Positions 9,183 through 53,239 of a stretch of 64,000 nt of DNA are shown piece by piece. The notes beneath the pieces were generated by a model. The model was not told the origin of the DNA. It was given only the letters and a program-made list of their open reading frames with translations, and ran no database searches. Position numbers and translations under genes: made by a program. The DNA is from an uncultured bacterium (GTDB lineage Bacteria; Abyssobacteria; SURF-5; CBDUXP01): assembly GCA_965371225.1 (NCBI GenBank), contig CBDUXP010000001.1, positions 71,883 through 135,882 of the forward strand. The letters are read 5' to 3'. Positions within the stretch are counted from its first letter, which is position 1. Each line of letters starts with the position of its first letter.

Positions 9183-10616
9183 CTAGGCCGACTCCACCGC
9201 GACGTCGGTGATTTCCACAGGCGCGGTGAAGCCCTTGACGGTGACCGGGGCCAGGCGGTTCGCCACGTACTTGTGGCCAATCCCGTCGAGCACCGAGGTG
9301 GCCGCGATCACGTGTCCGCCGGCCGCCTCCGCGCAGAGGCGGGACGCCAGATTGACCGCGTCACCGATGATGGTGTACTCCAGATGCTTCTCGCTGCCGA
9401 TGTTGCCGATGAGCACCTCCCCCACGGCAAGGCCGATCCCGGTAAGCAGCGGCGGTTGGCCCGCGTCCCGGCGCCGCGCGTTGAACGCCGCCAGGGCGAT
9501 CTGCATCTGGCACGCGGCATCCAGCGCCCGCTCGCGGTGATCATCCTGCGGGAGGGGCGCGCCGAAGTAGGCGAGCAACCCGTCCCCCATGAATTTGTCG
9601 ATGGTCCCTTCGCGTTCAATCACCACGCCCATGAGGACATCGAAGTATTCGTTCAGGGCGTGGACGAGCGCTTCCGGGTCCATCCCCTCTGCGAGCGCCG
9701 TGTAGTCGCGCACATCGGAGATCAGGACGGTCACCTGCCGGCGCTCGCCTTCCAGGTGCAGCACATCGGACAGGGCGATCAATCGTTCGGCCACTTGCGG
9801 CGCCAGGTACATGGCAAACGCAGACTTGACGCGATCGCGCTCCCGCAACCCATCGACCATCCCGTTGAACGCGGCGCTGAGCCGGGCGATTTCGTCGCTG
9901 CCGCGGACGGGGACGTGCGTGGTGTAGTCGCCGGCCTCGACGTGGTGCGTCGCGTCGACCAGCCGCTGGATGGGGCGGGTGAGGCGCCGCGCGAAGCCCG
10001 CGCCGAGCGCTCCGCCGAGCAACGCCAGGCTGCTGGAGAAGAGGATGACCCACGCCATGCGCGTCTGCAGCTCGGTGAAGTACGCATCCATGTCGTAATC
10101 CACCTTGACGACGCCCACCGTGATGCCGTCCGCCCCCATGATGGGCGCAAACGCGGAGATCCGGCCGCCGGCCGCGGCCGCGTAGGGATTCGTGTACATC
10201 ACCTCGCGCGTCAGGATCGCATACAGCAGGTAGTCGCTGGCGAGATAGAGAGCGCCGCTGGCCGGACCGTCGGGCCGGGTCGTGACCACGTATTCCAGTT
10301 GGTTCTCCACGGGTGTGGTGCGCAGCACGGCCAGCGGCAACTCGAGAGCGTACGCGCGCCGGGCCGCCGCCAGCACCTCCCGCGCCGCGCGCGCGCGTTT
10401 CCCCTCGGCAGCGGCGCCGGCCGGGATCGCGACCAGATCGCGGGCGGGTATCTGCGCCGCGGCCAGGCGGGCCGCCCCCGCCAGCCGTTCGCCGTGCAGC
10501 ACGTGTAACTCCCGGCGCAGGCTCAGGTACAGGTTCAGGGTGCCGAGCACGACGGCGAGCGCGACGAGGAGGGTCACGCCCAGGGTGATCTTCGCGGTCA
10601 AGGTGAACCGCATCAC
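9183..10616 (-). CDS. Membrane-bound class III adenylate/guanylate cyclase with periplasmic sensor and HAMP domain
   Basis: N-terminal TM, a ~170-aa extracytoplasmic region, a second TM and a HAMP-like segment (IQRLVDATHHVEAGDYTTHVPVRGSDEIARLSAAFNGM). Cyclase core RRQVTVLISDVRDYTALAE ... GTIDKFMGDGLLAYFGAP ... GIGLAVGEVLIGNIG. Confidence 0.75.
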   Translation of the reverse strand: MMRFTLTAKITLGVTLLVALAVVLGTLNLYLSLRRELHVLHGERLAGAARLAAAQIPARDLVAIPAGAAAEGKRARAAREVLAAARRAYALELPLAVLRTTPVENQLEYVVTTRPDGPASGALYLASDYLLYAILTREVMYTNPYAAAAGGRISAFAPIMGADGITVGVVKVDYDMDAYFTELQTRMAWVILFSSSLALLGGALGAGFARRLTRPIQRLVDATHHVEAGDYTTHVPVRGSDEIARLSAAFNGMVDGLRERDRVKSAFAMYLAPQVAERLIALSDVLHLEGERRQVTVLISDVRDYTALAEGMDPEALVHALNEYFDVLMGVVIEREGTIDKFMGDGLLAYFGAPLPQDDHRERALDAACQMQIALAAFNARRRDAGQPPLLTGIGLAVGEVLIGNIGSEKHLEYTIIGDAVNLASRLCAEAAGGHVIAATSVLDGIGHKYVANRLAPVTVKGFTAPVEITDVAVESA

Positions 10617-35228: not shown

Positions 35229-37763
35229 CTAGGGGTCGATGCCGTACACCTGCAAGTGCGTGAATCGCGTCACGAAGGTGCTGGTCCCCGCGCGCTCCCG
35301 AAAGTGCACCAGGCGCACCCCGGTGAGCGTCACCGGATCCGTCCCGGCGCGTGCCCAGTCCGCGGCGAGCGGCAAGGTCACCGTGCGCCACGCGCCCGGC
35401 TCGCCTGCGAGGAGGCCGGCCCGCTCGATGAGCGGCACCGGCTGGGCCTGTCCCGCAGGCCAGGAGCCGACGGCGCCGCCCGTGCTGTAGAGCAGGTACG
35501 CCAGGGGCGGGCGCGCCGTCCCCTCCACTTCGATCCAGCAGGCCAGCACCCCGCCCGGTGGCACGCGGTCGCTCTCCACCTGCACGGTCACCTCGAGCCG
35601 GGCGGCGCCGGCCACGGTCAACCCCTTCCGGGACACGTGCGGCGCGCACCGTTGCCATCCGAGGTCGGTGGCACTCGCCAGGACAAGATTCGCGTCCTCG
35701 ACTTCCACCTGCAAGTTGGGCGCGCACTCCGTCGCCACCCGCCAGGGACCGTCCTCCAACACGGGCCCATCAAACGCTTCTTCCCACAGCACAATGGCAG
35801 TCGGCGGGGGCGCGTCGGCGAAGCCCTCGAGCGGCGGCGCGGGGGCCGGCTCTGCAGTCGGCGGGGCAGCTGACGGTTCGGGCGGGGCGGCGGCGAGTGC
35901 GAGCGCCGCGACCGCTTCCCCATGGCGCGCTTGGGCCGCGGCGAACCCCTGCTGTTGCTCCTCCACGTGTTGCTTGGCGAGCGCGATGCGAGCGCGATGG
36001 GTCCTGAGGGAATCGCGGGCCTGGTCTGCCGCGGCCGCGGCCTGCCCGTACGCGCGCTCGAAATGCCGGAGCTCAGTGAACGGAATGCGCATGCGGCCGC
36101 CCTCCGGTAACTGCACTCGCAGGGTTTCCATATCGCTCTCGGCATCCAGAATGCGGCAGACCAACTCCCGCCCGCTGGTGAAGACGACGCGGTCGGGAAA
36201 CTGCAAGCTCGCATCCGGCGGGGCACTGCGCTGTTGCGTCAGGGCAACCTGGGCCGCAGCGTTCGCCTCACGCGCCGCGCGCCATTCGGCGCTCGCGGCC
36301 GCCAGCGTGCGCAACTCAGGCCCGTAGGCGGGGGGCGGCACGGGCGGGAGATACGCGGCGGCGTCTTCCATCAGGGGGGGCATCTCCTCCCTGCGCACGA
36401 AATCCACCTGGTGGTCGAGCTTCCACGTATCGAACACATCCCGCGCCCATGCCCGAGCAATTTGGCGATCCTGGGCCGTGGCCGCGGTGGTCGCCCGGGG
36501 GCGGAGCGGGGTGTCCTCGGCCAGCGCCGAAGCGGGCAGGAACACGGGACCCATGTCCGGGTAGGTCAGGACGGCGCCACCGTCCTGCGCGTGCGCGTCC
36601 GGGGCGGGGAGGATGCCCCCGTTGCGAAGGTGCACGCTCACGCGCGCCTGCGCCGCCCCTATCTCCGCCTGGGCGTCGTACAGGCTCAGCAACCCAGCGA
36701 GTGCTTCCATGTCGGGCACGCGATGCACCACGGGGGGGCGCATCGGCGCGGCGGGCTCTTGCGCGGGGCGCAGCAAGATCAGCGCGAGTGCGGTCGCGGT
36801 GGCGGCCAGCCCCCCGGCTCCCAGCAGCATGGCCCACCGGGTGGTCGCCGGCGTGGGGGCCGGCCGGAGCTGACCCGGTGCCCCGGTGGACTGCACCTCT
36901 TGGGCGGAGCTGCTCGTCGCGTCCCCCTTGACGATGAGGCGCAAGTCCGCGATCACGTCGGCGCAGCTCTGGTAGCGACCTTCGGGCTCCTTGGCGAGCA
37001 TCTTCAACACCACCCGTTCGACCGGGATAGGCACATCCGCGTTCAGTTCGCTTGGCGGACGCGGCTCATCGAACTGATGTTGTTGGAGGGTGACCAACGC
37101 ATCCTTATTGTCGAAGGGCACTCCGCCGGTGAGCATCTCGTAGAACACGATCCCGAGACTGTAAATGTCGCTCTGTGGCGTCGTGGTCTTCCCCGACGCC
37201 TGCTCCGGGGACATGTATTCGGGCGTGCCGACGATGGTGCCCAAAGTGGTCAACCGCTCGGCGGTCCCGTGCAGGGCGATGCCGAAGTCCGTCAATTTCG
37301 CATTGCCCCGCCGGTCAAACAGAATGTTCGCGGGTTTGATATCGCGGTGGATAATGCCGGCTTCATGCGCAGCGTGCAGGCCCCGGCAGACTTGGACGAC
37401 CGAGCGCACGGCATCGGTCACGTTCAGGTGCTGCTTGCGGAAGATCCGGTCGTCCAGCGTCTCGCCTTCGACCAACTCCATGGCATAGTAGTGCGCGCCG
37501 TCCTGCTCGCCGATGTCGTACACCTGGACAATGTTCGGGTGGTTGAGCTGCGCGATGGCGCGCGCCTCGCGCCGGAAGCGGCGGACGAAGGCCTCGTCGA
37601 TGGTGAACTGGGGCGGCAGGAGTTTCAGCGCCACCCGGCGATCCAGCTCCACCTGGCGCGCCAGGTACACCACGCCCATCCCCCCCTTGCCGAGCTCTCC
37701 TTCGATTCGGTAGCCGCCCAGACGTTTGCCGATGAGCGAACTCACGCGCCCAGTGTAGCGCAC
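35229..37763 (-). CDS. Hanks-type Ser/Thr protein kinase with TM segment and large extracytoplasmic domain (kinase 1 of 3)
   Basis: GELGKGGMGVVYLA ... VALKLL ... IIHRDIKPANILF ... DFGIA ... GTPEYMSPEQ. TM helix MLLGAGGLAATATALALILL. ~480-aa C-terminal domain. Confidence 0.8.
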   Translation of the reverse strand: MRYTGRVSSLIGKRLGGYRIEGELGKGGMGVVYLARQVELDRRVALKLLPPQFTIDEAFVRRFRREARAIAQLNHPNIVQVYDIGEQDGAHYYAMELVEGETLDDRIFRKQHLNVTDAVRSVVQVCRGLHAAHEAGIIHRDIKPANILFDRRGNAKLTDFGIALHGTAERLTTLGTIVGTPEYMSPEQASGKTTTPQSDIYSLGIVFYEMLTGGVPFDNKDALVTLQQHQFDEPRPPSELNADVPIPVERVVLKMLAKEPEGRYQSCADVIADLRLIVKGDATSSSAQEVQSTGAPGQLRPAPTPATTRWAMLLGAGGLAATATALALILLRPAQEPAAPMRPPVVHRVPDMEALAGLLSLYDAQAEIGAAQARVSVHLRNGGILPAPDAHAQDGGAVLTYPDMGPVFLPASALAEDTPLRPRATTAATAQDRQIARAWARDVFDTWKLDHQVDFVRREEMPPLMEDAAAYLPPVPPPAYGPELRTLAAASAEWRAAREANAAAQVALTQQRSAPPDASLQFPDRVVFTSGRELVCRILDAESDMETLRVQLPEGGRMRIPFTELRHFERAYGQAAAAADQARDSLRTHRARIALAKQHVEEQQQGFAAAQARHGEAVAALALAAAPPEPSAAPPTAEPAPAPPLEGFADAPPPTAIVLWEEAFDGPVLEDGPWRVATECAPNLQVEVEDANLVLASATDLGWQRCAPHVSRKGLTVAGAARLEVTVQVESDRVPPGGVLACWIEVEGTARPPLAYLLYSTGGAVGSWPAGQAQPVPLIERAGLLAGEPGAWRTVTLPLAADWARAGTDPVTLTGVRLVHFRERAGTSTFVTRFTHLQVYGIDP

Positions 37764-37793
37764 GGGACGGCCGCGGCCCGCGACGCGCGCCGG

Positions 37794-39464
37794 TTACCGA
37801 GGCGGCTTGGTGCTCGCCATCAGGAGGCGGACGGCTTCCTCATACCCGGCCACCGCTGCGGTGGCGTCGTCCCCCGCCTCGCGGGCAGCCTCGACCGCGC
37901 GCCACCGTTTCGCCACCTGCCGTAATTCCGCGCGGCTGCGAATTTCCGGCGGCGGCGGCAGGTCCCGCTGCCCCTGTTCCAACATGCGACGCAGGCCCAA
38001 GAGCGGCAAGCCGCCGCCTTCCAGCATGCCCCCGTGTGCGGGATTGTTGTTTTTCCATTGGATGTAGTACCGCCGCGCCCACGTGTCCCCCTGGCTCTTG
38101 AACGCCGCCGGCGTGTAGGCCTTCAGGGAGCCGGGAGTCACGGCGCTGTCGGGCAGGCGGACCTCGCCGCGCACCCGGGGCACCCGCAACACCACCCCCG
38201 CGTCTTCCCGCCGCCCGTCCGCGCCCGTCAAGATCGCGCCATTGGCCAGCGTCAGCGTCATCGGGGTGCCGCGGGGCTTGGCCAGAAACTTCTCCTGGTA
38301 ACAGTGGCGCTTGGCCGCGTACAACTCGATCATGTAGCTGTGGGCAATCGGAAAGGGGACGGGGCTCTGCTCCAGGGTGGGGACTTCCACCAGTGGCCGG
38401 CTGCACGGGGTCCGGCTCCGATAGACGGCAAGTCCCACGGCGAGCACGGCCACCGCGGCCAAGGGGATGCGATACGGGCGCACGACCTCGACCAAGGCCG
38501 CACCGACCTCGCCGGCGGCGGCGCCGCCACGGCCGACCAGCCGCTGGACGGTGTGCATGGTGGTTGGGCGCGGCACGGCGCCCGTGCCGGTGGGCGGAAC
38601 GGTGACCCCAGCCTGCAGGCCCGTGCCGGTGGTCGGGCTCCCGCCGGTGGCCGTGCGCACGAGGGAGCGCAGGTCCGCCACCACGGCGGCACACGTCGCG
38701 TAGCGGTCCGCCGGGTCCTTCGCCAGCATCTTCAACACCATGCGCTCCAGCGGCGCCGGAATCTCCGGCGCCAAGTCGCTCGGCGCTCGCGGCGCCTCGT
38801 GCTGGTGCTGCTGCAGGATGATCAGCCGGTTCTCGTGTTGGAAGGGGACGGTGCCCGTGAGCATCTCGTAGAACACGATGCCGAGGCTATAGATGTCGCT
38901 CTGGAGCGTGATGGTCTTGGCGCCGGCCTGCTCCGGTGACATGTACTCCGGCGTGCCGATGATGCCCCCGGTGCGCGTGAGCCGTTCAGCGGTCAGGTCC
39001 AGCGCGATGCCAAAGTCCATGACCTTCGGCAGGCCTTCCTTGTCGATGACGATGTTGGCCGGTTTAATATCCCGGTGGATGATCCCGGCCCCGTGCGCCG
39101 CCTGCAGGGCGCGGCACACGTGCGCCACGATGCGCACCGCTTCCTTCCACGACAGGCGCTTCTTCCGGGCGATCCGCTGGTCCAGCGACTCGCCGTCCAC
39201 CAGTTCCATGACGTAGTAGTACGTGCCGTCCTGCTGGCCGCTGTCGTAAATGTGCACGATGCGCGCGTGATTCAGTTGCGCGACCGCGCGCGCCTCCCGC
39301 AGGAAGCGCTGCACGAACGAGGCGTCGTCCGTGAGCGTCTTGGCCAGCACCTTGAGCGCGACCGGCCGGTCCAGATCCACCTGCCGCGCCTTGTAGACGG
39401 TCCCCATCCCGCCGGAGCCGAGTTCCTCCTCGACCACGTACTCGCCGAACTGCTTTCCGATCAT
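37794..39464 (-). CDS. Hanks-type Ser/Thr protein kinase with TM segment and extracytoplasmic domain (kinase 2 of 3)
   Basis: GSGGMGTVYKA ... VALKVL ... IIHRDIKPANIVI ... DFGIAL ... GTPEYMSPEQ. TM helix. ~200-aa C-terminal domain. Confidence 0.8.
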   Translation of the reverse strand: MIGKQFGEYVVEEELGSGGMGTVYKARQVDLDRPVALKVLAKTLTDDASFVQRFLREARAVAQLNHARIVHIYDSGQQDGTYYYVMELVDGESLDQRIARKKRLSWKEAVRIVAHVCRALQAAHGAGIIHRDIKPANIVIDKEGLPKVMDFGIALDLTAERLTRTGGIIGTPEYMSPEQAGAKTITLQSDIYSLGIVFYEMLTGTVPFQHENRLIILQQHQHEAPRAPSDLAPEIPAPLERMVLKMLAKDPADRYATCAAVVADLRSLVRTATGGSPTTGTGLQAGVTVPPTGTGAVPRPTTMHTVQRLVGRGGAAAGEVGAALVEVVRPYRIPLAAVAVLAVGLAVYRSRTPCSRPLVEVPTLEQSPVPFPIAHSYMIELYAAKRHCYQEKFLAKPRGTPMTLTLANGAILTGADGRREDAGVVLRVPRVRGEVRLPDSAVTPGSLKAYTPAAFKSQGDTWARRYYIQWKNNNPAHGGMLEGGGLPLLGLRRMLEQGQRDLPPPPEIRSRAELRQVAKRWRAVEAAREAGDDATAAVAGYEEAVRLLMASTKPPR

Positions 39465-39562
39465 TGCCGCCGTCCTCCCGCCGGACCGTCCGCGATCTCA
39501 GCCGTCGCCGCTCCCCCGGCGACCGCCGATCTCCGAGCCTGCTGAGTGGGGTCTCGCGAGCG

Positions 39563-41452
39563 CTATTGTACCGGGTCGCGCGGTCGGGTCCTGGCCAGCG
39601 CGGCGAGTACCGCCTCCACCGCCGCGTCATACGCGGCCTCCGCCGCGGCCACGCGCTGTTCGGCCGCGTGGATGTCCGCGTCCTGTGCGGCGTCCGGCAC
39701 CGCCGTGTCCTCGCGCGCCCAAGCCGCAGACTGAATTTCAGTGAACCGCAAGCGGGTTTCGTGTCCGTCGGCCTTGCGCACGCGCAGGGAGTCGCGCTGC
39801 TGTTCGAGAATGGTGCACGGGATCACCCGTCCGCTGCCCAGGCGGATGAGGTCTGCGAACGCGTCGGCCGCCGGCCGCGGGGCATCCGGAGGGGGCACGG
39901 CCCGCAGGATGCACTGCACTTCGGCCACCGGAATACGGACCCGCCGCCCGTCGGCGCGCTCCACCCAGAGGGAACTCGGCTTCTCCACCTCGATGCGACA
40001 CTGCACCGCCGGGCCCATGCGCATGATGAGCCGATCCGGATACGTCTGGTGCGTTTCCACCATCATCGTGCCGGCCTCGGTCCGCCGGCCACCGCGCCGC
40101 AGCACCGCCAGGTCCTGGCGTTCGGCGCGCACGGCGGCCCAGCCTTCGGCCAACGCGCGCACCTCCGGTAGCGGTGGCGCGACCGCGGGCGCCGGCAACG
40201 CGGTCGCGGCCTCCGCCAGCAGGGTCGGGATCGAATCGGGGCCGGCCGCCGGTCCATGGTGCGCGACCCACTGCGCGTAGTACGCCCGGGCCCACTGGTC
40301 GCTCTCCGCACGCAGCACGGTATCGTCCAGTCCGAACCCATAGGGTTCCGGGTCGAGCACGGCCAACGGGAGCGCGATCTCCCCCACCTCCGCCACGGTG
40401 AGCAGGGCCTTGTCCCCTTCGAAATGCCCCGCGCTCCCACAGAGTTCCCCCCCATTGCGACAGCAGAGGATCACGCGCCGCTGCCGCGCGGACTCCAATA
40501 GCCGCGTGTAGGCCAGGTCCGTGAGGGCCGCCAGCGGATCGTCCACCGGCGGGGCCGTGTCCGCCGGGGGCCTGAACCCCCTGCCCACCGCACCGGTCGT
40601 GCGCGTGCCGCGGGCGGAACTGCGCTCCCCGTGCCCCTTCGCCACCGCCCGCAGGTCGGCCACCACCTCCGCGCACGTGGCGTATCGCTCCGCGGGCGCC
40701 TTAGCGAGCATCTGGAGCACGATCTCCTCGATCCCCACGGGAATCTCCGGCACCAGCGTGCGCGGCGCTGCCGGCTCGTCCCACTGGTGCTGTTGCAAGA
40801 GTACGAGCAGGTCGGGATGATCAAAGGGCAGGGCCCCGGTCAGCAACTCGTAGAACACCACGCCCAAGGAATACACATCGCTCGCGGGCGTCGCCTGCCG
40901 GCCCGCGGCCTGTTCGGGGGACATGAAGGCCGGCGTGCCCACGAGGGTGCCGCTCGAGGTGAGACCGACCTCGTCGGCGTCTTGCTGGCGCGCCACGCCG
41001 AAGTCCATGACCTTGACCCGCCCGTTCGAGTCGAGGGCCAAGTTTTCGGGCTTGAGATCGCGATGCACGACTCCCGCCTCGTGCGCGGCGTGGACGCCCT
41101 GACAGGCTTGGGCCATCACGCGCAGGGCGCTGCGTGGGGAAAAGCGCCCATCCCGCTCCAAGCGTTCCTTGATCGTGCGGTCGTTCACCAATTCCATGGC
41201 GAAGTAGTGGGCGCGCTCATGTTCGCCGATGCCGAGGATGCGCACGATGTTCGGGTGGTTGAGTTTCGCGATCCCGCGCGCTTCGCGGCGGAAGCGCTCA
41301 ATGAACGTCGCGTCATCGGAGAGATGCGCGTGCAGGACTTTGACGGCCACCGGCCGGTCCAGACTGACCTGGCGCGCCTGGTAGACCGTGCCCATTGCTC
41401 CGCGGCCCAGCTCCCGTTCCACGATGAACCCCCCGAGCTGGACGCCGATCAT
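39563..41452 (-). CDS. Hanks-type Ser/Thr protein kinase with extracytoplasmic domain (kinase 3 of 3)
   Basis: GRGAMGTVYQA ... VAVKVL ... VVHRDLKPENLAL ... DFGVA ... GTPAFMSPEQ. ~330-aa C-terminal domain. Confidence 0.8.
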   Translation of the reverse strand: MIGVQLGGFIVERELGRGAMGTVYQARQVSLDRPVAVKVLHAHLSDDATFIERFRREARGIAKLNHPNIVRILGIGEHERAHYFAMELVNDRTIKERLERDGRFSPRSALRVMAQACQGVHAAHEAGVVHRDLKPENLALDSNGRVKVMDFGVARQQDADEVGLTSSGTLVGTPAFMSPEQAAGRQATPASDVYSLGVVFYELLTGALPFDHPDLLVLLQQHQWDEPAAPRTLVPEIPVGIEEIVLQMLAKAPAERYATCAEVVADLRAVAKGHGERSSARGTRTTGAVGRGFRPPADTAPPVDDPLAALTDLAYTRLLESARQRRVILCCRNGGELCGSAGHFEGDKALLTVAEVGEIALPLAVLDPEPYGFGLDDTVLRAESDQWARAYYAQWVAHHGPAAGPDSIPTLLAEAATALPAPAVAPPLPEVRALAEGWAAVRAERQDLAVLRRGGRRTEAGTMMVETHQTYPDRLIMRMGPAVQCRIEVEKPSSLWVERADGRRVRIPVAEVQCILRAVPPPDAPRPAADAFADLIRLGSGRVIPCTILEQQRDSLRVRKADGHETRLRFTEIQSAAWAREDTAVPDAAQDADIHAAEQRVAAAEAAYDAAVEAVLAALARTRPRDPVQ

Positions 41453-47265: not shown

Positions 47266-48027
47266 ATGACGGCGACGACGGGATTCTGGTTGGCAGTGCT
47301 CGGTTTCGGATTGGCAGCGGGCAATTGGGCGGTCTACTGGCCCAAGATCAAGGCGATGCGCGTTCCCCTGCGGCCCGTGGGGCACCAGGCGGTCATGGTC
47401 GCGGTGCTGGTGCTCGCGGTCCTCGCGTTCGCCAACGGTCCAGGCCTGCTCGGCGGCATCCTGGCAGGGTTGGCGATCCCGCTGGCGGGCATGTTTCTGT
47501 TCTTCACACTGCGAAGCACCATGCCCAAGAATATTCCGGCGGTGGCGGTCGGGAAGCCGATCCTCGATTTCACCGCAAAGCGGGCGGACGGGCAGGACTT
47601 CGCCCTGGGCTCCCTGCGCGGCGCCCCCTTTCTGCTGAAGTTCTTCCGCGGCCACTGGTGACCGTACTGCGTCGCTGAGTTGCAGCGATGGGAAGCGTTC
47701 AAGGGCCAGTTCGAAGCCAAGGGGGTGCGCATGGTCGCCATCAGCCCGGACACGCACGCGGAGACGGCGGAGGCGGTCGCGAAGCACGGCTTCACGATGA
47801 CGATGCTGAGCGATGAGCCACTCACGGTAGTCGACCAATACAACCTGCGCCACGACCGGGCGATCGCGCCCAAGCCCGGGCGGCCGATGGTGCGGGCGCT
47901 GGCGGTGCCCACTACGTTCCTGGTGGACAGCGCGGGGGTGGTGAAATGGATCGACCAGGCTGAGGATTACCGCGTGCGCTCCGACGCGGACCGCGTGTTG
48001 GCCGCGATCCAGGAACACCTGCCTTGA
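47266..48027 (+). CDS. Membrane-anchored AhpC/TSA-redoxin-family thiol:disulfide oxidoreductase, predicted selenoprotein. UxxC motif with in-frame TGA at 47659..47661.
   Basis: ORFs 47266..47661 and 47680..48027 share a frame and are split only by TGA. The junction reads ...[48 protein letters not shown]..., with Sec where the first Cys of WCPYC belongs. Three N-terminal TM helices. A SECIS-like hairpin begins 8 nt after the UGA. Confidence 0.6.
47670..47690 (+). promoter_or_regulatory. Candidate SECIS hairpin for Sec-redoxin 1
   Basis: CGUCGCUG-AGUUG-CAGCGAUG. 8-bp stem including one G-U pair. Loop AGUUG is identical to that of the paralog. Confidence 0.5.
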
Positions 48028-48860
48028 ACGGGCGCGGGCGCTGCGGCGCCGCACGGCGGGCATTAGTGCTGGCCCTGGTCCTCGCCGGCGGCATGGGCTG
48101 TGGGGGCGATGCCCGGGCCGTCGCGCAACCGGTTCCGGCGGACGTGCCGCGGGTGGCCGTCGGCGATCCGTACATCGACTTCACGGCCCCGGATGCGGAC
48201 GGGAACGCCTTCACCCTGTCCTCGCTTGACGGCACCCCCATCCTGCTGAAGTTCTTCCGCGGCCACTGGTGACCCTACTGCGTCTCCGAGTTGCGGAGTT
48301 GGGAAGAGCTGCGGGGCGACTTCGACGCGCTGGGCATCGCGCGGATCGGAATCAGCTCGGACACGGTGGATCAGGCCGCCGGCATGGCGGAGAAGTACGG
48401 GTTCAGTATCCGGTTGTTGAACGACGCGGACCTGACCGTAACGGACCGCTACAACCTGCGGTACACCGATAACAAGACGCCAATCGCGACCACGTTGTTC
48501 ATCACCGCGGACGGTATCGTACGTTGGATCGACGTGGCGCCCGATTACCGCAAGCGCACGGAAGGCGTACAGGTACTGGCGGCGGTGCGGCGTGCCCTGG
48601 CGACCGGTTCAGAGGCCGCCGAGTCGACCGTAGAACCGGTTGCGACGAGCTTCGGCGTCGTGCTCGTGGATCCGGGCAAGAACAAACTGCAGGTCATCAA
48701 GGCAGTGCGGACGATCACGGGGCTGGGACTGGCTGACGCCAAGGCGCTCGTGGAGGACGCTGCGGAATTCATCCAGCAGGGTCTGACACAGGCGGAAGCG
48801 GACGGGATCGCCGCCCGGCTCGTACAGGCTGGCGCGACGGTCGAGATTCGGCCAGGGTGA
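48024..48860 (+). CDS. Secreted AhpC/TSA-redoxin-family selenoprotein (UxxC, TGA at 48270..48272) fused to a C-terminal ribosomal-protein-bL12 (L7/L12) C-terminal-domain-like module
   Basis: ORFs 48024..48272 and 48291..48860 share a frame and are split only by TGA: ...[48 protein letters not shown]... N-terminal signal peptide ([16 protein letters not shown]). The C-terminal 65 aa, [68 protein letters not shown], aligns closely with E. coli bL12 CTD, [68 protein letters not shown]. Putative TTG start overlaps the stop of the preceding gene. Confidence 0.6.
48284..48298 (+). promoter_or_regulatory. Candidate SECIS hairpin for Sec-redoxin 2
   Basis: CUCCG-AGUUG-CGGAG. Same loop and GAGUUGC context as paralog 1, with compensatory stem changes. 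Confidence 0.5.
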
Positions 48861-48935
48861 TGCATTGTGGGGCCCGGGTCCCTTTGGTATACTCGGGCGG
48901 TCGCGGCGGGGTGGACGGACCCCGCCCGCGCTTTT

Positions 48936-49012
<77 letters not shown>

Positions 49013-49048
49013 CCAGCCCGCCCAGCCCGGCGGTTTGCGCGTACGGTG

Positions 49049-49077
49049 TTGACGCCCCGGGCGGGCAGGGCTAGGCT
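49049..49077 (+). promoter_or_regulatory. Candidate sigma70-type promoter TTGACG-N17-TAGGCT, 12 nt upstream of the 49089 ATG (near-leaderless transcript)
   Basis: TTGACG at 49049..49054, 17-nt spacer, TAGGCT at 49072..49077. Found by eye. Confidence 0.3.
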
Positions 49078-49088
49078 GCGCACTTAGC

Positions 49089-50144
49089 ATGTGGGATGAC
49101 TATCTGGAAGTCCCGTTTTCGCCCGAGTGTGTGGATGAATGCCGGGATGCGTGTAGCGCCGCGTTCGAGCTGCAGCGCGAGCACATGCAGATGCTCATGT
49201 CCACCCTCAAGCCGCGGGGGATTGCATGCTTGGGCGCGGGCGTCCTGAATGACATCCCCATCGACAGCTTCATCGTGGGCGGGGCGCAGGTCTACCTGGT
49301 CGATTGGATCCCGGACGTGTCCCGGGAAGGGTTCCGCGGGCGCCTCATCGCTGAAGACGGGGATGGCTACGACTGCCTCTTGTGCGAGGAACGCTGCGCG
49401 TCCGGAAACTTCTGCGCGGCGTTCCAGCCCCCGGTACACCCCGTCCATCGGGTGTGCCACAATTTCGTACTGGCCGAGGGGGCGCATCCGCGATGCGAGA
49501 ACTACGCGCCGGGGCCAGAGCCCCATTTCGTGACGGGGGACGTCACGGGGGGCCGCGCGCAACGGTTTGCGGAATCGCTGCCGGACATCGTGCGCGAAGC
49601 GAAAACCCCCGCCCGGGCGTTCCGCAAAGCCATCAGCCACTGCCAACGCTGCGCCACCGTGAACGAGCGGCTCGATATCGAGGCGGGGTCCCAGGACCTG
49701 GTGACGTCGTCCATGATGGTGTCGCAATTCGAGCACGAGCCCTACACGTTCTTCGCGAAGCTGATGGAGGAACACTTCGGGCGCAAATCGATCGAGGAAA
49801 AGACCGCCGAGTTGACGCCGCTGTTGGAGCAGTTGCGCTCGGACCTGTTCCAAGTGCAGATGGACGGGCATGTGCGGGAACTCTACCGCCTGGTGGACAA
49901 GGACCGTGGGAAGGTGTACTTCTCCGTGGAGCTGTTCCACGCCCGGCCGGCGGACGACAAGTACTTCCTGCTGCACGAGAGCCCCGCGGTCCTGGACACG
50001 CTGAGCAAGTACTTCCACTTCGACTTCTCGTTCATCCCCCCCCAAGAGTCGCTCAAGGAAGTCACCACGGGGCAGCGGCCCTCCATCGTCCAATCGTTCG
50101 TCCTCCATCCCATCGAGAACCTGGAGAAAGCCGCCGCGTTCTGA
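49089..50144 (+). CDS. Hypothetical Cys-rich protein with class-I-methyltransferase-like N-terminal motifs
   Basis: 351 aa. GIACLGAGVLNDIP (GxGxG-like) and VYLVDWIPD (acidic end of beta-2) suggest a Rossmann SAM-binding fold. Cys clusters present (CVDECRDAC; CLLCEERCASGNFC; CHNF...C; CQRC). No confident family assignment. Confidence 0.45.
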   Translation: MWDDYLEVPFSPECVDECRDACSAAFELQREHMQMLMSTLKPRGIACLGAGVLNDIPIDSFIVGGAQVYLVDWIPDVSREGFRGRLIAEDGDGYDCLLCEERCASGNFCAAFQPPVHPVHRVCHNFVLAEGAHPRCENYAPGPEPHFVTGDVTGGRAQRFAESLPDIVREAKTPARAFRKAISHCQRCATVNERLDIEAGSQDLVTSSMMVSQFEHEPYTFFAKLMEEHFGRKSIEEKTAELTPLLEQLRSDLFQVQMDGHVRELYRLVDKDRGKVYFSVELFHARPADDKYFLLHESPAVLDTLSKYFHFDFSFIPPQESLKEVTTGQRPSIVQSFVLHPIENLEKAAAF

Positions 50145-50265
50145 CCGCGGGCCTCGCCCCGTCGGACGGGGCCGGGCTTCACTCCCCGACCGCCGGGGGT
50201 GCCATCGCGCCGGGTCGGCGACCCGCGTAGCGCCACGGGCGTAGCACTGGTAGGAGACGCGTGGA

Positions 50266-50730
50266 ATGGAAACTGGGATGACTGCGAGATACGTCCACAC
50301 GAATCTCATCGCGCGCGACATTGCAGCCCTCGCTGCGTTCTACGAGCGCGTCTTCGGATGCACGCCCATCGGCCCGGAACAGCATCTCGCCGGGAAATGG
50401 GTTGAAGACATCACGGGCGTGGCCGGCGCCGCGATTCGGGTGATGCACTTGCGAATGCCGGGCTGCGGTGAGGACGGCCCGACGCTGGAGGTCATTCAGT
50501 ACGACACTCAACCGGCACGAGTCACCACAACACCGAACGCCCCCGGATTCGGGCACATCGCCTTCGCCGTTGAAGATGTGCCAGCGGCTCGCGACGCGGT
50601 CATTGCGGCTGGGGGTGGCCGCGTCGGCGAAGTCGTCTCCGTGGACATTCCCGGGCGCGGGCACCTGACGGAAACGTATGTCACCGACCCTGAGGGGAAT
50701 GTCGTTGAACTGCAGCACTGGTCGGATTGA
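50266..50730 (+). CDS. VOC-family (glyoxalase/bleomycin-resistance/dioxygenase fold) protein
   Basis: Two beta-alpha-beta-beta-beta modules. HTNLIARDIAALAAFYERVFG and GFGHIAFAVEDVPAARDAVIAAGG resemble glyoxalase-I-like metal-binding segments. Confidence 0.65.
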   Translation: METGMTARYVHTNLIARDIAALAAFYERVFGCTPIGPEQHLAGKWVEDITGVAGAAIRVMHLRMPGCGEDGPTLEVIQYDTQPARVTTTPNAPGFGHIAFAVEDVPAARDAVIAAGGGRVGEVVSVDIPGRGHLTETYVTDPEGNVVELQHWSD

Positions 50731-50833
50731 CGGGAAGTCCCGCGCATGGCAGGGGTGAACGGGACACGGTAGAGTAGAAGGCGCTGCGGCGTCGCCCGGC
50801 CTGCACCTCCCGGGCGCCGCAGGTGTTCCACTC

Positions 50834-53239
50834 ATGGCCCCCTCGTCCCGGCAGGTCGACCCCGACGATCCAACAGTGGTTTCGTCGCGGGGCACACCGG
50901 CGCAAGACACCACCGTTCGGGGCGACCGGCCCCTCCCACCGGCGGACCAGAGGCCCGATCCGGATGCGACCCTCCCGACGGAGGGCATGTCCGTCGCCAT
51001 GCCGCAGACGGATGAGGACACCCTCGCGAGCCAGGGGTTGTACTCGCGCGGGGAGGAGATTGGCCGCGGGGGCATGGGCCGCGTGTCCATGGCGTGGGAC
51101 CACAACCTCCAACGCTCCGTGGCGGTGAAGGAAATGTTACCCGCACACCAGGGCGTGGCGGAAGCGGGCGAGCGGTTCTTGCGCGAGGCGTTCCTGACCG
51201 GCGGGCTGGAGCATCCCGGCGTGGTGCCCGTCCACCATTTCGGTGTCAACGGCGAGGGCCTGCCCTTCTACACCATGAAGTACATTGCGGGGCAGACGCT
51301 GGAAGAAGCTATCCGCGGGTTGGAGGAACTCCCCGCGCCGGAGGCAGACTACCAGCGCCTCCTCCTGTTGCAGCGTGCACAGCAGGCGTGTCAGGCCATC
51401 GCGTTCGCGCACACGCAGGGCGTGATCCATCGCGACATCAAGCCGAGCAACATCATGCTCGGCGAGTACGGCGAAACGGTCGTGCTGGATTGGGGCGTGG
51501 CCAAGAAGATCGAAGACGCATCGCAAGTGCCCGCACCATGTCCTGACGAGGTCCCACCGCCCCCAGGCAGCGTGCCGACGAGCGGCGCACGGATCCCACC
51601 CCTCCCGGCTGACGAGCAGCCCGCGCCGGCCGCGCCCGCGCACTCGACGCCGCCTTCCTCGGGCGTGAGCGGTGGGCGCGCCCCCATGGGGGGGTCGAGT
51701 ACCCAAGCCGGGGCGGTGATCGGGACGCCGGCGTACATGGCGCCCGAGCAGGCGCGAGGCGACGTGGAGCAGCTGGGTCCGAGCGCGGACGTGTTCAGTC
51801 TGGGCGCCACCCTGTACTGCCTCGTGACGGGCCGGGCGCCGTATGCGGGGATTCCGCCGGACCGCATCCTCGAGGCGGCGCGCACCGCGCAGTTCCCGCG
51901 CCCGAGCGGCCTGGTTCCCACCGTCCCCCGGGCGCTGGAAACGATCATCCTGCGGGCCATGGCGCAGGCACCGGCCGATCGGTACGGCACCGCGTGCGAA
52001 CTCGCGACGGACCTGGAGCGCTTTCTCACCGGCCAACTGGTGGAGGCGCATCAGTACACCCTGTTGGAGAAAGCCGTGAACTGGTATCGGCATCATCGCG
52101 TGGCGGTGTTGACCATGCTGCTGCTGGGGATCGCCACGAACGTGGTGGCGCTGGTGGTCGCGGGCCTGCACCTGACGCAGACGCTCACGGGCACGTTACT
52201 GTGGATCGCGGACGCGCAGGTTCGCCAGAGCCTGGTGTTGACCGAGGAATGGCTCGCGCCCGCTGCGGGCGCGTTGGGGCTCGTGGAAGATGTGGCGCGC
52301 CGCTATGGCACCGACCGGGAGCCGGCCGAGCGCGCGCTCCACCTACTCAAGCAGTCCATCGACAACGTGGAGCTGGTGTACTACGCCATCGACGACAAAC
52401 GGCACCCACCGGTCAACCTGGGGAGTGATCCGACGCGCGAGTTCCCGGCGGACGTGGACACGCGCACCCGCCCGTGGTACACAGGCGCGCTCGCGGCGGA
52501 GGGGGCCGTCGCCATTACCGACCCGTATACGGAAGTGATTACCGGCCTGACGTGCGTGTCCGTATCCCGACACCTGCGGCTGGAAGGCAATCCCCCGGCT
52601 GACCTCGTGGTCGCCGCGGACATCTTTCTGATGCCCATGATCGAGTTCCTGCGGCCGCGCAACTTCCCGCAGGACGGCGCCGCCGTGTTGTTGAGCGCCG
52701 TGGATCCCAGGGCGCCGCACCCCGCACGCTGGCAGACCGCCAAGCCCATCCTGATAGCGAGCACGCTGGACCCGGCCGTGTTCGACGCCCCGATGCTGGT
52801 GACGGGCACGATCGATCCGACGGCGTTCGACACCGCCACGCAAGCGGCGGCGCAGCGCATGGTCGAGGCCATCCGCGCGGGCAGCAGGCGCGACGCCACC
52901 ATCGACGTGCAGGCGCTGCTGCCGAATCTTGGCGAGGCACAGGCCGTGCCCATGACGGTGCACGCGGCCATGCTCGTCGATCTCGCGGGCCGTCCGCACG
53001 CGGTCTTCACCGCCCCGGTCCCGGACGTGCCATGGGAAGTGAGCGTCATCATTCCCATGGCGCTGCTCACCAGTCCATTCGTCGACGCGGGCCGCGTCCT
53101 GCTGCGCACGTCCGGCATCGGGTTGTTGATCGCCCTCCTGGGGTTGCTGCTCTATTACGCGGTGCGTACCCGGCGGGACCGGCGGCTGCCCGCGGTCGGG
53201 TATGCGCCCGCAAGCACACCACCCCACTCCCGCACGTAA
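50834..53239 (+). CDS. Hanks-type Ser/Thr protein kinase with Pro-rich linker, TM helix and extracytoplasmic Cache-like sensor domain
   Basis: Kinase domain: IGRGGMGRVSMA ... AVKEM ... VIHRDIKPSNIML ... DWGVAKK ... GTPAYMAPEQ. TM helix VAVLTMLLLGIATNVVALVVAGL. Ectodomain carries RPWYTGALAAEGAVAITDPYTEVITG (Cache-like R-P-W-Y ... D-P-Y). A second C-terminal TM follows. Confidence 0.75.
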   Translation: MAPSSRQVDPDDPTVVSSRGTPAQDTTVRGDRPLPPADQRPDPDATLPTEGMSVAMPQTDEDTLASQGLYSRGEEIGRGGMGRVSMAWDHNLQRSVAVKEMLPAHQGVAEAGERFLREAFLTGGLEHPGVVPVHHFGVNGEGLPFYTMKYIAGQTLEEAIRGLEELPAPEADYQRLLLLQRAQQACQAIAFAHTQGVIHRDIKPSNIMLGEYGETVVLDWGVAKKIEDASQVPAPCPDEVPPPPGSVPTSGARIPPLPADEQPAPAAPAHSTPPSSGVSGGRAPMGGSSTQAGAVIGTPAYMAPEQARGDVEQLGPSADVFSLGATLYCLVTGRAPYAGIPPDRILEAARTAQFPRPSGLVPTVPRALETIILRAMAQAPADRYGTACELATDLERFLTGQLVEAHQYTLLEKAVNWYRHHRVAVLTMLLLGIATNVVALVVAGLHLTQTLTGTLLWIADAQVRQSLVLTEEWLAPAAGALGLVEDVARRYGTDREPAERALHLLKQSIDNVELVYYAIDDKRHPPVNLGSDPTREFPADVDTRTRPWYTGALAAEGAVAITDPYTEVITGLTCVSVSRHLRLEGNPPADLVVAADIFLMPMIEFLRPRNFPQDGAAVLLSAVDPRAPHPARWQTAKPILIASTLDPAVFDAPMLVTGTIDPTAFDTATQAAAQRMVEAIRAGSRRDATIDVQALLPNLGEAQAVPMTVHAAMLVDLAGRPHAVFTAPVPDVPWEVSVIIPMALLTSPFVDAGRVLLRTSGIGLLIALLGLLLYYAVRTRRDRRLPAVGYAPASTPPHSRT

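Follow-up and report, generated by a model that had tools for sequence, protein, structure and literature searches.

A predicted exported selenocysteine redoxin fused in frame to a bL12-type C-terminal domain

Why would an oxidoreductase that carries selenocysteine (Sec) and an apparent export signal end in the C-terminal domain (CTD) of ribosomal protein bL12? The question is raised by the second of two adjacent redoxin genes (gene 2) in a 64,000-nucleotide stretch of DNA from an uncultured bacterium of the Abyssobacteria lineage, which we call the window. The explanation we favor, to which we assign a probability of roughly 0.55 as a whole, is that gene 2 represents a real, lineage-specific fusion of an exported Sec redoxin to a single bL12 CTD of dispersed type. 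In this explanation the CTD comes from a large and little-studied pool of non-ribosomal bL12-CTD ('L12/ClpS') domains, and does not serve as a working piece of the ribosomal stalk. The features on which the argument depends are collected in Table 1.

Table 1. Positions of features at the tandem redoxin locus (window coordinates).
Feature	Position	Strand	Description or basis
Gene 1, upstream paralogue	47266..48027	+	AhpC/TSA redoxin with W-U-P-Y-C; TGA at 47659-47661; no CTD
Gene 1 SECIS-like hairpin, loop AGUUG	47671..47689	+	Begins 12 nt after the U of UGA
Gene 2, fusion gene	48024..48860	+	278 codons, one of them UGA (Sec83); encodes, in this order, signal peptide, redoxin, linker and bL12-CTD-like module
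Gene 2 predicted export signal, [26 protein letters not shown]	48024..48101	+	Sequence reading and crude hydrophobicity/lipobox heuristic
Gene 2 redoxin domain, AhpC/TSA (thioredoxin-fold), residues 46-168, site W-U-P-Y-C	48159..48527	+	Pfam
In-frame UGA read as selenocysteine, first position of UxxC in gene 2	48270..48272	+	Same motif in homologues
Gene 2 SECIS-like hairpin GUCUCCG-AGUUG-CGGAGUU	48282..48300	+	Covariation
Linker, ~23 residues, [20 protein letters not shown]	48579..48647	+	AF2 pLDDT; comparison with L001 and L084 tails
bL12-CTD-like module (70 residues) and stop codon	48648..48860	+	Pfam, AF2, PDB search, Foldseek; missing from relatives
Promoter-like block TTGTGG, 17 nt, TATACT	48865..48893	+	Conserved in window, L001 and L084; directly past gene 2 stop, upstream of tRNA-Pro
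tRNA-Pro (CGG)	48936..49012	+	ARAGORN; Rfam 63.6 bits; downstream anchor of collinearity

The reading frame of gene 2 is open throughout except for one TGA triplet. Its start codon is a TTG that overlaps the stop codon of gene 1 (TTGA, 48024-48027), and the orthologue on a related contig (L001) begins with an equivalent GTGA overlap. A preliminary description of this DNA, made from the sequence alone, had the gene begin at 48273, but this position is merely the first base past the UGA, and the gene starts at 48024. The C-terminal sequence quoted there is an exact match to the last 70 residues of the gene 2 product (48648-48857). An n-region rich in Arg, a hydrophobic core and the lipobox-like sequence GMGC can be read at the N-terminus of the protein by eye and with a crude heuristic, an ARA|V signal-peptidase I site being the alternative. 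An equivalent N-terminus (...ALLASALAC) is present in the L001 orthologue. From these features we infer that the gene 2 protein is exported, and is probably lipid-anchored or periplasmic. The N-terminus of the gene 1 protein is hydrophobic, with approximately three predicted membrane helices.

The W-UGA-P-Y-C motif recurs in six genes on four contigs, comprising genes 1 and 2 of the window, genes 1 and 2 of L001, and homologues on L084 and L083. In gene 2, the Sec residue would be decoded via the SECIS hairpin located just downstream of the UGA. The SECIS-like stem spans 5-7 bp. Across an alignment of the six sequences, pairing is kept in 30 of 30 cells for the five inner pairs, and two of these five show double changes. 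Specifically, the gene 2 hairpin differs from that of gene 1 by compensatory changes from GC to UA and from UA to CG. The covariation score was reached by 2 of 500 shuffles, and slid controls are 26-67% paired versus 88% for the hairpin alignment. For gene 1, the minimum free energy (MFE) fold stacks eight pairs around the AGUUG loop, and seven of them are pairs that were tested for covariation. When the gene 2 region is folded alone, the MFE prefers another structure, and thus support for this element comes from covariation and not from energy. The energy z-scores of the hairpins (+0.27 and -0.95) are not significant, and an Rfam scan detected tRNA only, with no SECIS or other RNA family. No selA, selB, selC or selD gene was found in the 64-kb window.

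The N-terminal part of the gene 2 protein matches the Pfam families AhpC-TSA (1e-25) and Redoxin (5e-18), and gene 1 matches the same families (4.6e-27 and 6e-22). Peroxiredoxins proper (Prx/BCP/PrxQ) carry the peroxidatic motif PxxxT/SxxC(U). Gene 2 is not one of these, given that its active site reads F-F-R-G-H-W-U-P-Y-C with no Thr or Ser three residues ahead of the Sec, and that its scores against the NCBIfam Prx equivalogs are far under their cut-offs. Weak NCBIfam matches to ResA, Bcp and PrxU are observed, and the matches by sequence in the PDB are 5epf, 1lu4 (MPT53) and ResA. By analogy with its family, the core would function as a 'Prx-like' thiol-disulfide oxidoreductase with selenocysteine as the attacking residue (UxxC). 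Such UxxC 'Prx-like' selenoproteins form a described family (Zhang and Gladyshev, PMC1088965). This family and the exported oxidoreductases of the TlpA/ResA type resemble gene 2 in their AhpC/TSA-Redoxin Pfam match, in a thioredoxin-like W-U-x-x-C in place of the peroxiredoxin TxxC/TxxU, in a SECIS hairpin right after the UGA, and in a (for gene 2, predicted) export signal or membrane anchor, features that make gene 2 a candidate member. Unlike gene 2, they have no C-terminal domain of the bL12 type.

The C-terminal segment of gene 2 covers the whole Pfam profile PF00542 (Ribosomal_L12 C-terminal domain), positions 1-67 of 67, with 82.7 bits (E=2.3e-23), where the gathering threshold is 25.9 bits, and so the fusion to a bL12 CTD reported in the preliminary description is borne out by the profile. 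Among solved structures, the best matches by sequence are bL12 chains (1dd3, 4.5e-13; 1ctf, 1.5e-11). A single-sequence AF2 model reached a pLDDT of 38 and was replaced by an alignment-based model, in which the redoxin part is truncated and of low confidence, and in which the CTD has a pLDDT of 81-92 and the order beta-alpha-alpha-beta-alpha-beta. The expected superposition on the bL12 CTD was likewise obtained, with Foldseek placing the CTD model on 1CTF with a target TM of 0.94 and an rmsd of 0.9 Å over 67 columns at 46% identity. Homology to ribosomal bL12 therefore extends across the whole domain, with the same fold. Identity to genuine bL12 CTDs is 51-60%, and the helix 4/5 motif VIKAVRxxTGLGLxxAKxLVE is kept. 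The N-degron adaptor ClpS has a fold in common with the bL12 CTD, but its chains rank after those of bL12 (target TM 0.62-0.71), with 11-18% identity and deviations of 2.3-3.9 Å in compact alignments versus ~1 Å for bL12. The CTD sequence is unambiguously of the bL12 type and not of the ClpS type, and the C-terminal segment of gene 2 is confirmed to be truly homologous to the bL12 CTD and to continue the frame of the Sec redoxin.

Could this arrangement nonetheless be an artefact, in which assembly or binning brought a CTD segment of a different molecule or organism into the contig, or in which a sequencing error conceals a stop or frameshift, so that no such protein is made? The source is a metagenome-type contig of 210 kb present in one copy. 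Records of the fused protein exist in NCBI and ENA, whereas the independent Logan assemblies contain three neighbouring genes but not this one. However, other genes of the contig are also missing from Logan, and the locus can be compared with two relatives. Positions 9012-10257 of L001 align with 47308-48565 of the window, and blastn pairs L001 10333-10482 with window 48862-49011 at 84.7% identity. Similarly, L084 has the same order of redoxin, promoter-like block and tRNA-Pro. In both relatives the redoxin stops 8-10 residues past the conserved core and is followed by tRNA-Pro, with no CTD. The extra DNA in the window relative to L001 and L084 amounts to ~212-220 bp (~215), which corresponds to one CTD plus a stop codon. 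The flanks are collinear with two relatives and the extra DNA equals exactly one domain and its stop, which speaks for a genuine lineage-specific insertion and against a mis-join. An artefact would have required two precise in-frame joins within 300 bp. The codon-position GC of the CTD is 0.75/0.44/0.79 (66% overall, GC3 about 0.80), which is typical of coding sequence in the gene 2 frame, and its GC3 and codon usage fall within the host range, at the 10th-13th percentile of host windows. Moreover, the bL12 genes closest to the segment belong to unrelated lineages, with 60% identity or less. No bL12 in any collection matches the CTD segment, and thus no plausible source for a chimera was found. 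We therefore regard an artefact as quite improbable.

In the favored explanation, the fusion would have arisen when a ~215-bp piece of DNA, carrying one bL12-CTD module and its own stop, landed at the 3′ end of gene 2, before the promoter of tRNA-Pro. The old C-terminal tail of the redoxin would thereby have been turned into a flexible linker. The first part of the linker is the counterpart of the native C-terminal tail of L001 and L084, and its last ~7 residues probably derive from the hinge of the donor. The linker is disordered in the AF2 model (pLDDT < 50, residues 98-118 of P0001). The conserved block downstream of the gene 2 stop is presumably a promoter; a strict consensus promoter scan did not call it. 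No att-like direct repeats that would mark integration scars were found around tRNA-Pro.

How old the fusion is, and where the CTD came from, are harder to establish. The preliminary description noted that the upstream paralogue lacks the module, which is correct for gene 1, and suggested that this may mean a recent fusion. A recent fusion cannot be shown because no donor with more than 60% identity is present in any collection searched. Specifically, no CTD more than 60% identical to that of gene 2 occurs among ~15 billion proteins, the GTDB species genomes and a metagenome scan, and the latter yielded neither a second copy of the fusion nor any close CTD relative above 55%. Among ~5.8 billion protein clusters the redoxin-CTD fusion is a singleton. 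It is lineage-specific, being absent from L001 and L084. Selection on the CTD is not measurable because the fusion is known as one protein on one contig, with no fused orthologue. A search with ArgG shows only four close relatives (81-90%), followed by matches of 73% or less across many phyla. A foreign origin of the CTD on the basis of composition was considered and ruled out by its codon usage (13th percentile of host windows).

If the CTD was acquired, does it belong to the ribosomal or to the dispersed type? A Pfam search of gene 2 for the ribosomal N-terminal domain (PF16320) gave none, with only AhpC-TSA/Redoxin and PF00542 being present. The bL12 equivalog model TIGR00855 scores 71.0 bits with the full gene 2 protein and 68.1 bits with the CTD alone, below its cut-off of 84.4. 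Genes for bL12 are ordinarily found in the cluster rplK-rplA-rplJ-rplL-rpoB. Gene 2 is outside a cluster of this type, and its neighbours are GT87, GT2, the paralogous redoxin, tRNA-Pro, an unknown ORF, a glyoxalase and a Ser/Thr kinase. Gene 2 thus differs from ribosomal bL12 in the missing N-terminal dimerisation/bL10-binding domain, in the missing rplJ-rplL-rpoB context, and in its attachment to an apparently exported redoxin. No second CTD was detected by tblastn in the 64-kb window.

Profile scores are consistent with this distinction. With a ribosomal-CTD HMM, the gene 2 CTD obtains 93.3 bits versus at least 111.7 for true bL12 CTDs. The ribosomal minus the non-ribosomal HMM score is -3.3, such that the CTD scores slightly better on the dispersed profile, whereas true bL12 CTDs score at least +5.9 and dispersed domains have a median of -17.5 and a maximum of +9.4; this contrast is intermediate and not decisive, and the two reference sets were both picked as matches to the gene 2 CTD itself. 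By profile, the CTD is outside the ribosomal range and at the ribosomal-like edge of the dispersed range, most dispersed CTDs being farther from the ribosomal consensus. The CTD carries L66, A81 and D82 (E. coli numbering), variants that are over-represented among dispersed and exported domains. It could also descend from a ribosomal donor and have diverged since, because its closest sequences in plain identity are genuine bL12 proteins (up to 58-60%), slightly above the best dispersed domains (56-57%). Outside bL12, the top match for a single domain is P0195 (56% identity), a protein of 146 residues that consists of a signal peptide and two CTDs.

The preliminary description had supposed that the domain is otherwise found only in the ribosomal protein, which is wrong. 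An exhaustive HMMER search with the CTD recovered 6394 cluster representatives at E<=0.001 and 429 at E<=1e-10, genuine bL12 included, and the ribosomal N-terminal domain is missing from 140 of the 145 best matches (of the 6394) that were scanned. The partners in these non-ribosomal proteins include TIR, protein kinase, KAP NTPase, LRV, caspase, PNP_UDP_1 and others. By a crude heuristic, 54 of the 149 top representatives have signal-peptide-like N-termini, and nine of these have lipobox-like sequences. There is also precedent in the literature, where the 'L12/ClpS' domain has been described in proteins of conflict systems (PMC7159879), in a cyanobacterial orthocaspase (PMC8283722) and in Streptomyces phage genes (PMC12509530). 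These reports and a further one (bioRxiv 10.1101/2025.01.14.632903) cover proteins with multiple copies of the CTD as well as fusions to TIR, kinase, KAP NTPase, LRV, caspase and vWA-MoxR components. Mentions of the dispersed domain turn up under the Pfam name or 'ClpS', and not under 'L12-like domain'.

The dispersed proteins resemble gene 2 in that the CTD is an accessory module joined to an unrelated domain without the ribosomal N-terminal domain, and in that many of them begin with signal peptides or lipoboxes. They differ in that the top matches carry 2-8 tandem CTDs whereas gene 2 carries a single one, and in that a partner like that of gene 2, an AhpC/TSA redoxin that is also a selenoprotein, was seen in no other protein. 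The bL12 CTD is therefore not confined to the ribosome, and the sequence clusters that reuse it number from many hundreds into the thousands. Given that non-ribosomal CTDs are widespread and that many look secreted, the gene 2 fusion is much less surprising than it first appears. The architecture is a one-off that combines a UxxC selenoprotein redoxin with a promiscuous bL12-CTD module, both of them known, and is a data point rather than a new principle.

What might the CTD do in this setting? The preliminary description drew attention to the translational GTPases that the domain recruits in the ribosome. In such a scheme, the gene 2 CTD would keep its ribosomal job and bind EF-Tu, EF-G, IF2, RF3 and possibly SelB, to provide a regulatory or moonlighting link to translation or Sec decoding. 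The factor-contact residues of bL12 are presumably those of helix 4/5 in the E. coli protein, which we assigned after Diaconu 2005 and Helgstrand 2007. Six of them (K65, I69, K70, R73, L80 and K84) are identical in the gene 2 CTD and two changes (V66L and E82D) are conservative, and gene 2 is itself a selenoprotein gene that adjoins a second one. However, the same contact residues are 66-94% conserved in 396 non-ribosomal domains, and similarly so in 100 domains from proteins with export signals. Contact residues are therefore not diagnostic. At several surface positions, basic or acidic residues that are near-invariant in bL12 are neutralised (K81A, KEG to QQG, KK to AA, EE to VQ). The CTD also cannot assist the decoding of its own Sec codon, because it is translated after the UGA. 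Finally, the protein has a predicted signal peptide, and it would not be a piece of the ribosomal stalk because it is without the dimerisation and bL10-binding domain and would reside on the wrong side of the membrane for EF-Tu, EF-G, IF2, RF3 and SelB. Recruitment of translation GTPases or SelB by the gene 2 CTD is thus unsupported and, from the predicted topology, unlikely; as a full account of the fusion we consider it very improbable.

Within the favored explanation, our best guess for the role of the CTD, which we hold only tentatively, is that it may be an independently folded, tethered periplasmic appendage for protein docking or scaffolding. The main alternative to a docking role is a near-neutral passenger. 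According to this alternative, a stray CTD-coding fragment came to lie at the 3′ end of gene 2 by accident and is translated as a harmless, functionless tail, while the redoxin works as it does in relatives. Such an accident is possible, if somewhat doubtful. It would fit a singleton fusion whose two syntenic relatives have no CTD, with the domain hanging from a disordered linker at the very end of the protein, the place where an addition disrupts least, and with no conserved partner or operon change alongside it. In contrast, the CTD is complete across its profile and confidently folded, and its codon usage has the character of the host. Furthermore, the lack of any sampled sequence with more than 60% identity indicates that it is not a fresh copy of any sampled sequence, and a long neutral stay should have eroded it, an argument that is weak if the donor is unsampled.

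A more ambitious version of the docking role is a long shot. In this version, the CTD would be a functional extracytoplasmic docking domain representing a large secreted class of bL12 CTDs with a 'factor-binding' face, and would bring the Sec oxidoreductase to a specific periplasmic partner. In a more radical variant, the CTD would act before export on the ribosome or SelB, favouring Sec decoding of the tandem UGA genes. 

About one third of the best-scoring CTD representatives look exported, and these copies still conserve the face with which the ribosomal domain contacts translation factors. Because gene 2 joins the domain to an enzyme whose chemistry can be assayed, it could be a convenient entry point to the role of this face outside the cytoplasm, and if the CTD is indeed an extracytoplasmic docking domain, redox activity would provide the first functional handle on the secreted class. 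The public record of the gene 2 protein consists only of the 189-residue fragment past the UGA, an example of the way in which standard gene callers split the genes of selenoproteins.

Two adjacent genes, each with a single in-frame TGA at an F-F-R-G-H-W-[TGA]-P-Y-C motif, encode proteins assigned by Pfam to AhpC-TSA/Redoxin (5e-27 for gene 1, the upstream paralogue, and 1e-25 for gene 2). The stop codon of gene 1 is overlapped by the TTG start codon of gene 2 (TTGA), and the orthologous pair on the related contig L001 shows the same kind of overlap (GTGA). Only the gene 2 protein also matches Ribosomal_L12 (PF00542), the C-terminal domain (CTD) of ribosomal protein bL12, at residues 210-275. 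When isolated, the 70-residue module covers the full 67-position profile with an E value of 2.3e-23, and the gene 2 protein scores 71 bits against the NCBIfam bL12 equivalog, under its 84.4-bit cut-off. In a PDB sequence search, residues ~180-276 are matched best by bL12 chains, and residues ~45-170 by chains of peroxiredoxin, MPT53 and ResA. An alignment-based AlphaFold2 model assigns the module a pLDDT of 81-92 and the ~20 residues before it less than 50. Foldseek places the modelled module on the E. coli CTD crystal structure 1CTF with a target TM of 0.94 at 0.9 Å, with ClpS chains far behind bL12. The preliminary description had proposed, from a quoted peptide and its bL12 alignment, that a bL12 CTD homologue is fused to a selenocysteine (Sec) redoxin and is lacking in the upstream paralogue. 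The Pfam and NCBIfam matches establish that this alignment is real and far beyond chance, and both proposals are confirmed.

Coordinates of the genes, blocks and neighbouring features
Feature	Sequence	Position	Strand	Remark
Gene 1	window	47266-48027	+	in-frame TGA at 47659
Gene 2	window	48024-48860	+	in-frame TGA at 48270
CTD module	window	48648-48857		70 residues
Tandem selenoprotein genes	window	47266-48860		split at UGA by public gene callers
Tandem selenoprotein genes	L001	9015-10321		split at UGA by public gene callers
Upstream collinear block	window; L001	47308-48565; 9012-10257
Downstream collinear block	window; L001	48862-49011; 10333-10482
TTGTG(G/A)-17 nt-TATACT block	window; L001; L084	48865-48893; ~10336-10365; ~498-527		probable tRNA promoter
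Gene 1-type selenoprotein	L083	3596-4351		membrane region and UxxC redoxin
Three tandem paralogous Ser/Thr protein kinase genes	window	35229-41452	-	844, 556 and 629 residues; order identical in L001
Fourth kinase	window	50834-53239		dCache-like region
Segment missing in L001	window	49013-50978		~2 kb, directly 3' of tRNA-Pro
ORF, 351 residues	window	49089-50144		no Pfam or NCBIfam match
Glyoxalase-family gene	window	50266-50730		GC3 0.73 vs 0.87

The UGA lies within W-U-P-Y-C in six genes on four contigs, namely genes 1 and 2 of the window and of L001, together with L084 (a second syntenic relative) and L083 (a more distant contig). A hairpin with an invariant AGUUG loop lies 12 nt 3' of the U of UGA. 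All six sequences keep its five inner pairs intact, two of which change on both sides (GC/UA in 3/6 and CG/UA in 2/6). This covariation is reached by only 2 of 500 column shuffles, and sliding the 3' arm as a control lowers pairing from 88% to 26-67%. The folding energy by itself is not significant, no Rfam family fits the hairpin, and no Sec machinery was found within the 64-kb window. Selenoproteins termed 'Prx-like', whose UxxC motif resembles that of thioredoxins, are on record as a family (PMC1088965). Since the active-site motif of the window redoxins lacks the Thr/Ser of true peroxiredoxins, we read the gene 2 redoxin as a thiol-disulfide oxidoreductase of this kind.

Public gene callers split the tandem genes at UGA, into pieces of 131 and 115 residues for one gene and 82 and 189 residues for the other. 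The gene 2 record is the 189-residue fragment (P0001). Thus, databases hold fragments only, and the fusion protein is on record without its predicted signal peptide and its active site. The selenoprotein on L083, which also carries the AGUUG SECIS loop, has other neighbours (nitroreductase, phosphodiesterase, DUF1003 and lysyl-phosphatidylglycerol synthase), such that the Sec redoxin family reaches beyond the locus of this lineage.

The N-terminus of the gene 2 protein comprises a basic n-region, a hydrophobic core and a lipobox-like Cys, with cleavage between ARA and V as an alternative, and its L001 orthologue is of equivalent make-up. These features predict that the protein is exported. Gene 1 instead begins with about three hydrophobic helices.

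L001, a 255-kb contig from another sample with an ArgG 90% identical to that of the window, is syntenic across most of the window, sharing the order three kinases, GT87, GT2, redoxin 1, redoxin 2, tRNA-Pro, a kinase, DnaJ and more. Its redoxin 2 ends in '...AAVRTVLDAAGANTPE*', and 11 bases past the stop codon comes the conserved block GCATTGTG...TATACT, followed by tRNA-Pro. The layout is the same in L084, where the redoxin terminates '...AALAAAEPPGSS*'. From the conserved GATTACCGC to ATTGTG the distance is 320 bp in the window versus 100 bp and 108 bp in L001 and L084, respectively, which amounts to a net gain of ~212-220 bp, or one CTD (210 bp) plus a stop codon. A contig mis-join as the source of the fusion is unlikely because the insert has collinear DNA on both sides and keeps the reading frame, with codon-position GC values (0.75/0.44/0.79) typical of coding DNA and codon usage within the host range (13th percentile of host windows). 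The insertion ends one base before the TTGTG(G/A)...TATACT block, which lies directly past the redoxin stop codon, about 43 nt 5' of tRNA-Pro.

In a 5.8-billion-cluster collection, PF00578 and PF00542 occur in one protein in P0001 alone, and the CTD is missing from the redoxins most closely related to it, at 70%, 64% and 46-50% identity. No CTD more than 60% identical to that of the window was found in any collection searched. The best identity is 60% among 185,579 species genomes, in which two Planctomycetota rplL genes reach 50-51%; it is 55% in metagenomes, and bL12 proteins are 51-58% identical. The fusion is specific to this lineage, L001 and L084 being without the CTD and no second fusion occurring in the cluster collection. 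'Recent', as suggested earlier, is a relative term when the closest CTD in the collections searched is at most 60% identical.

To place the CTD, we used two profiles, built from 54 genuine bL12 CTDs and from 391 domains excised from non-ribosomal proteins ('dispersed' domains). Because both reference sets are matches to the window CTD query, the following contrast is indicative only: the window CTD scores 93.3 bits with the ribosomal profile and -3.3 bits for ribosomal minus non-ribosomal, genuine bL12 CTDs score at least 111.7 and at least +5.9 bits, and dispersed domains have medians of 68.9 and -17.5 bits and maxima of 120.3 and +9.4 bits. With query-selected references, these values suggest that the window CTD lies beyond the range of the ribosomal CTDs, on the side of the dispersed class that is most ribosome-like. 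We take K65, V66, I69, K70, R73, L80 and E82 of E. coli bL12 to be its contacts to EF-Tu, EF-G, IF2 and RF3, an assignment that reportedly goes back to Diaconu et al. in 2005 and Helgstrand et al. in 2007. At these positions the window CTD has retained residues or conservative changes. Factor-contact residues are 66-94% conserved over 396 non-ribosomal domains, and likewise in 100 domains of exported-looking proteins, so their retention is uninformative on ribosomal function. L66, A81 and D82, the variants of the window CTD, are the ones for which both the dispersed and the exported set are enriched, and several charged positions that are near-invariant in bL12 are neutralised.

The claim that the domain is otherwise confined to the ribosomal protein proved wrong. 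When 1.84 billion cluster representatives were searched exhaustively by HMMER for the 70-residue module, 6394 matched at E<=0.001, and nearly all of the best 150 have 120-1600 residues and 2-8 CTD copies. All 145 scanned members carry PF00542, and just five carry the ribosomal N-terminal domain. Partner domains among the 145 include TIR (nine members), protein kinase (three), LRV, KAP NTPase, PNP_UDP_1 with pentapeptide repeats, caspase, FGE-sulfatase, fn3, Sel1, PASTA and HSP70. A crude test of N-terminal hydrophobicity finds signal-peptide- or anchor-like N-termini in 54 of the 149 best representatives and lipobox-like Cys motifs in nine. The best single-domain match to the window CTD outside bL12 (P0195; 56% identity, 146 residues) consists of two CTDs placed right behind a signal peptide. 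Published examples include vWA-MoxR conflict-system proteins into which an 'L12/ClpS domain' is inserted (PMC7159879), HTH proteins that are fused to this domain and encoded beside Lipocone genes (bioRxiv 10.1101/2025.01.14.632903), a cyanobacterial orthocaspase with a Ribosomal_L12 accessory domain (PMC8283722), and 'L7/L12 C-terminus domain' genes of Streptomyces phage Riptide (PMC12509530).

As the representatives P0121-P0269 show, non-ribosomal proteins with 2-8 tandem CTD copies form a very large set, and about one third have predicted signal-peptide- or lipobox-like N-termini. Even in exported-looking CTD proteins, K65, I69, K70, R73, L80, E82 and K84 (helix 4/5, factor-binding in the ribosome) are 59-93% conserved. 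Among the CTD-repeat representatives, EF-Tu domains 2 and 3 occur in one and a Ribosomal_L10 domain in another, which may reflect either true fusions of stalk or factor partners or gene-calling read-throughs.

Given how common exported CTD proteins are, gene 2 is most simply read as having captured, at its 3' end, one exported-type module or else a diverged piece of rplL. By family membership, the redoxin would act outside the cytoplasm, using Sec for thiol-disulfide or hydroperoxide chemistry, with the CTD tethered by a flexible linker of about 23 residues. The captured CTD might now be a small docking or scaffolding domain, or be merely tolerated. A place in the ribosomal stalk is ruled out, there being no bL10-binding domain. 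The GTPase- or SelB-type role suggested previously is improbable, because a CTD exported as predicted cannot meet translation factors and is made after the UGA has been decoded. The preliminary description was partly right, in that the homologue is true and the fusion lineage-specific, and wrong in its central novelty claim and functional suggestion. Gene 2 joins parts of two kinds already known into a unique architecture. Its own interest is modest, but it is a pointer to an under-studied class of exported bL12-CTD proteins.

The window is otherwise ordinary chromosome, with argG, argF, argD, GlnE, a large NAD-GDH, MatE, acyl-CoA ligase, GGDEF/HDOD, three tandem Ser/Thr kinases, GT87/GT2, DnaJ and a PAS histidine kinase. 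In L001 the kinase gene adjoins the tRNA, and the segment present there in the window may be a small tRNA-adjacent insertion, although no att-like repeat was found for it beside tRNA-Pro. After the L001 ArgG (90%), identities of ArgG relatives are 85, 84 and 81%, and beyond these four no more than 73%, to proteins from several candidate phyla and from Planctomycetota; by this measure, the lineage is one with few samples on record. Every window protein looked up is a singleton cluster.
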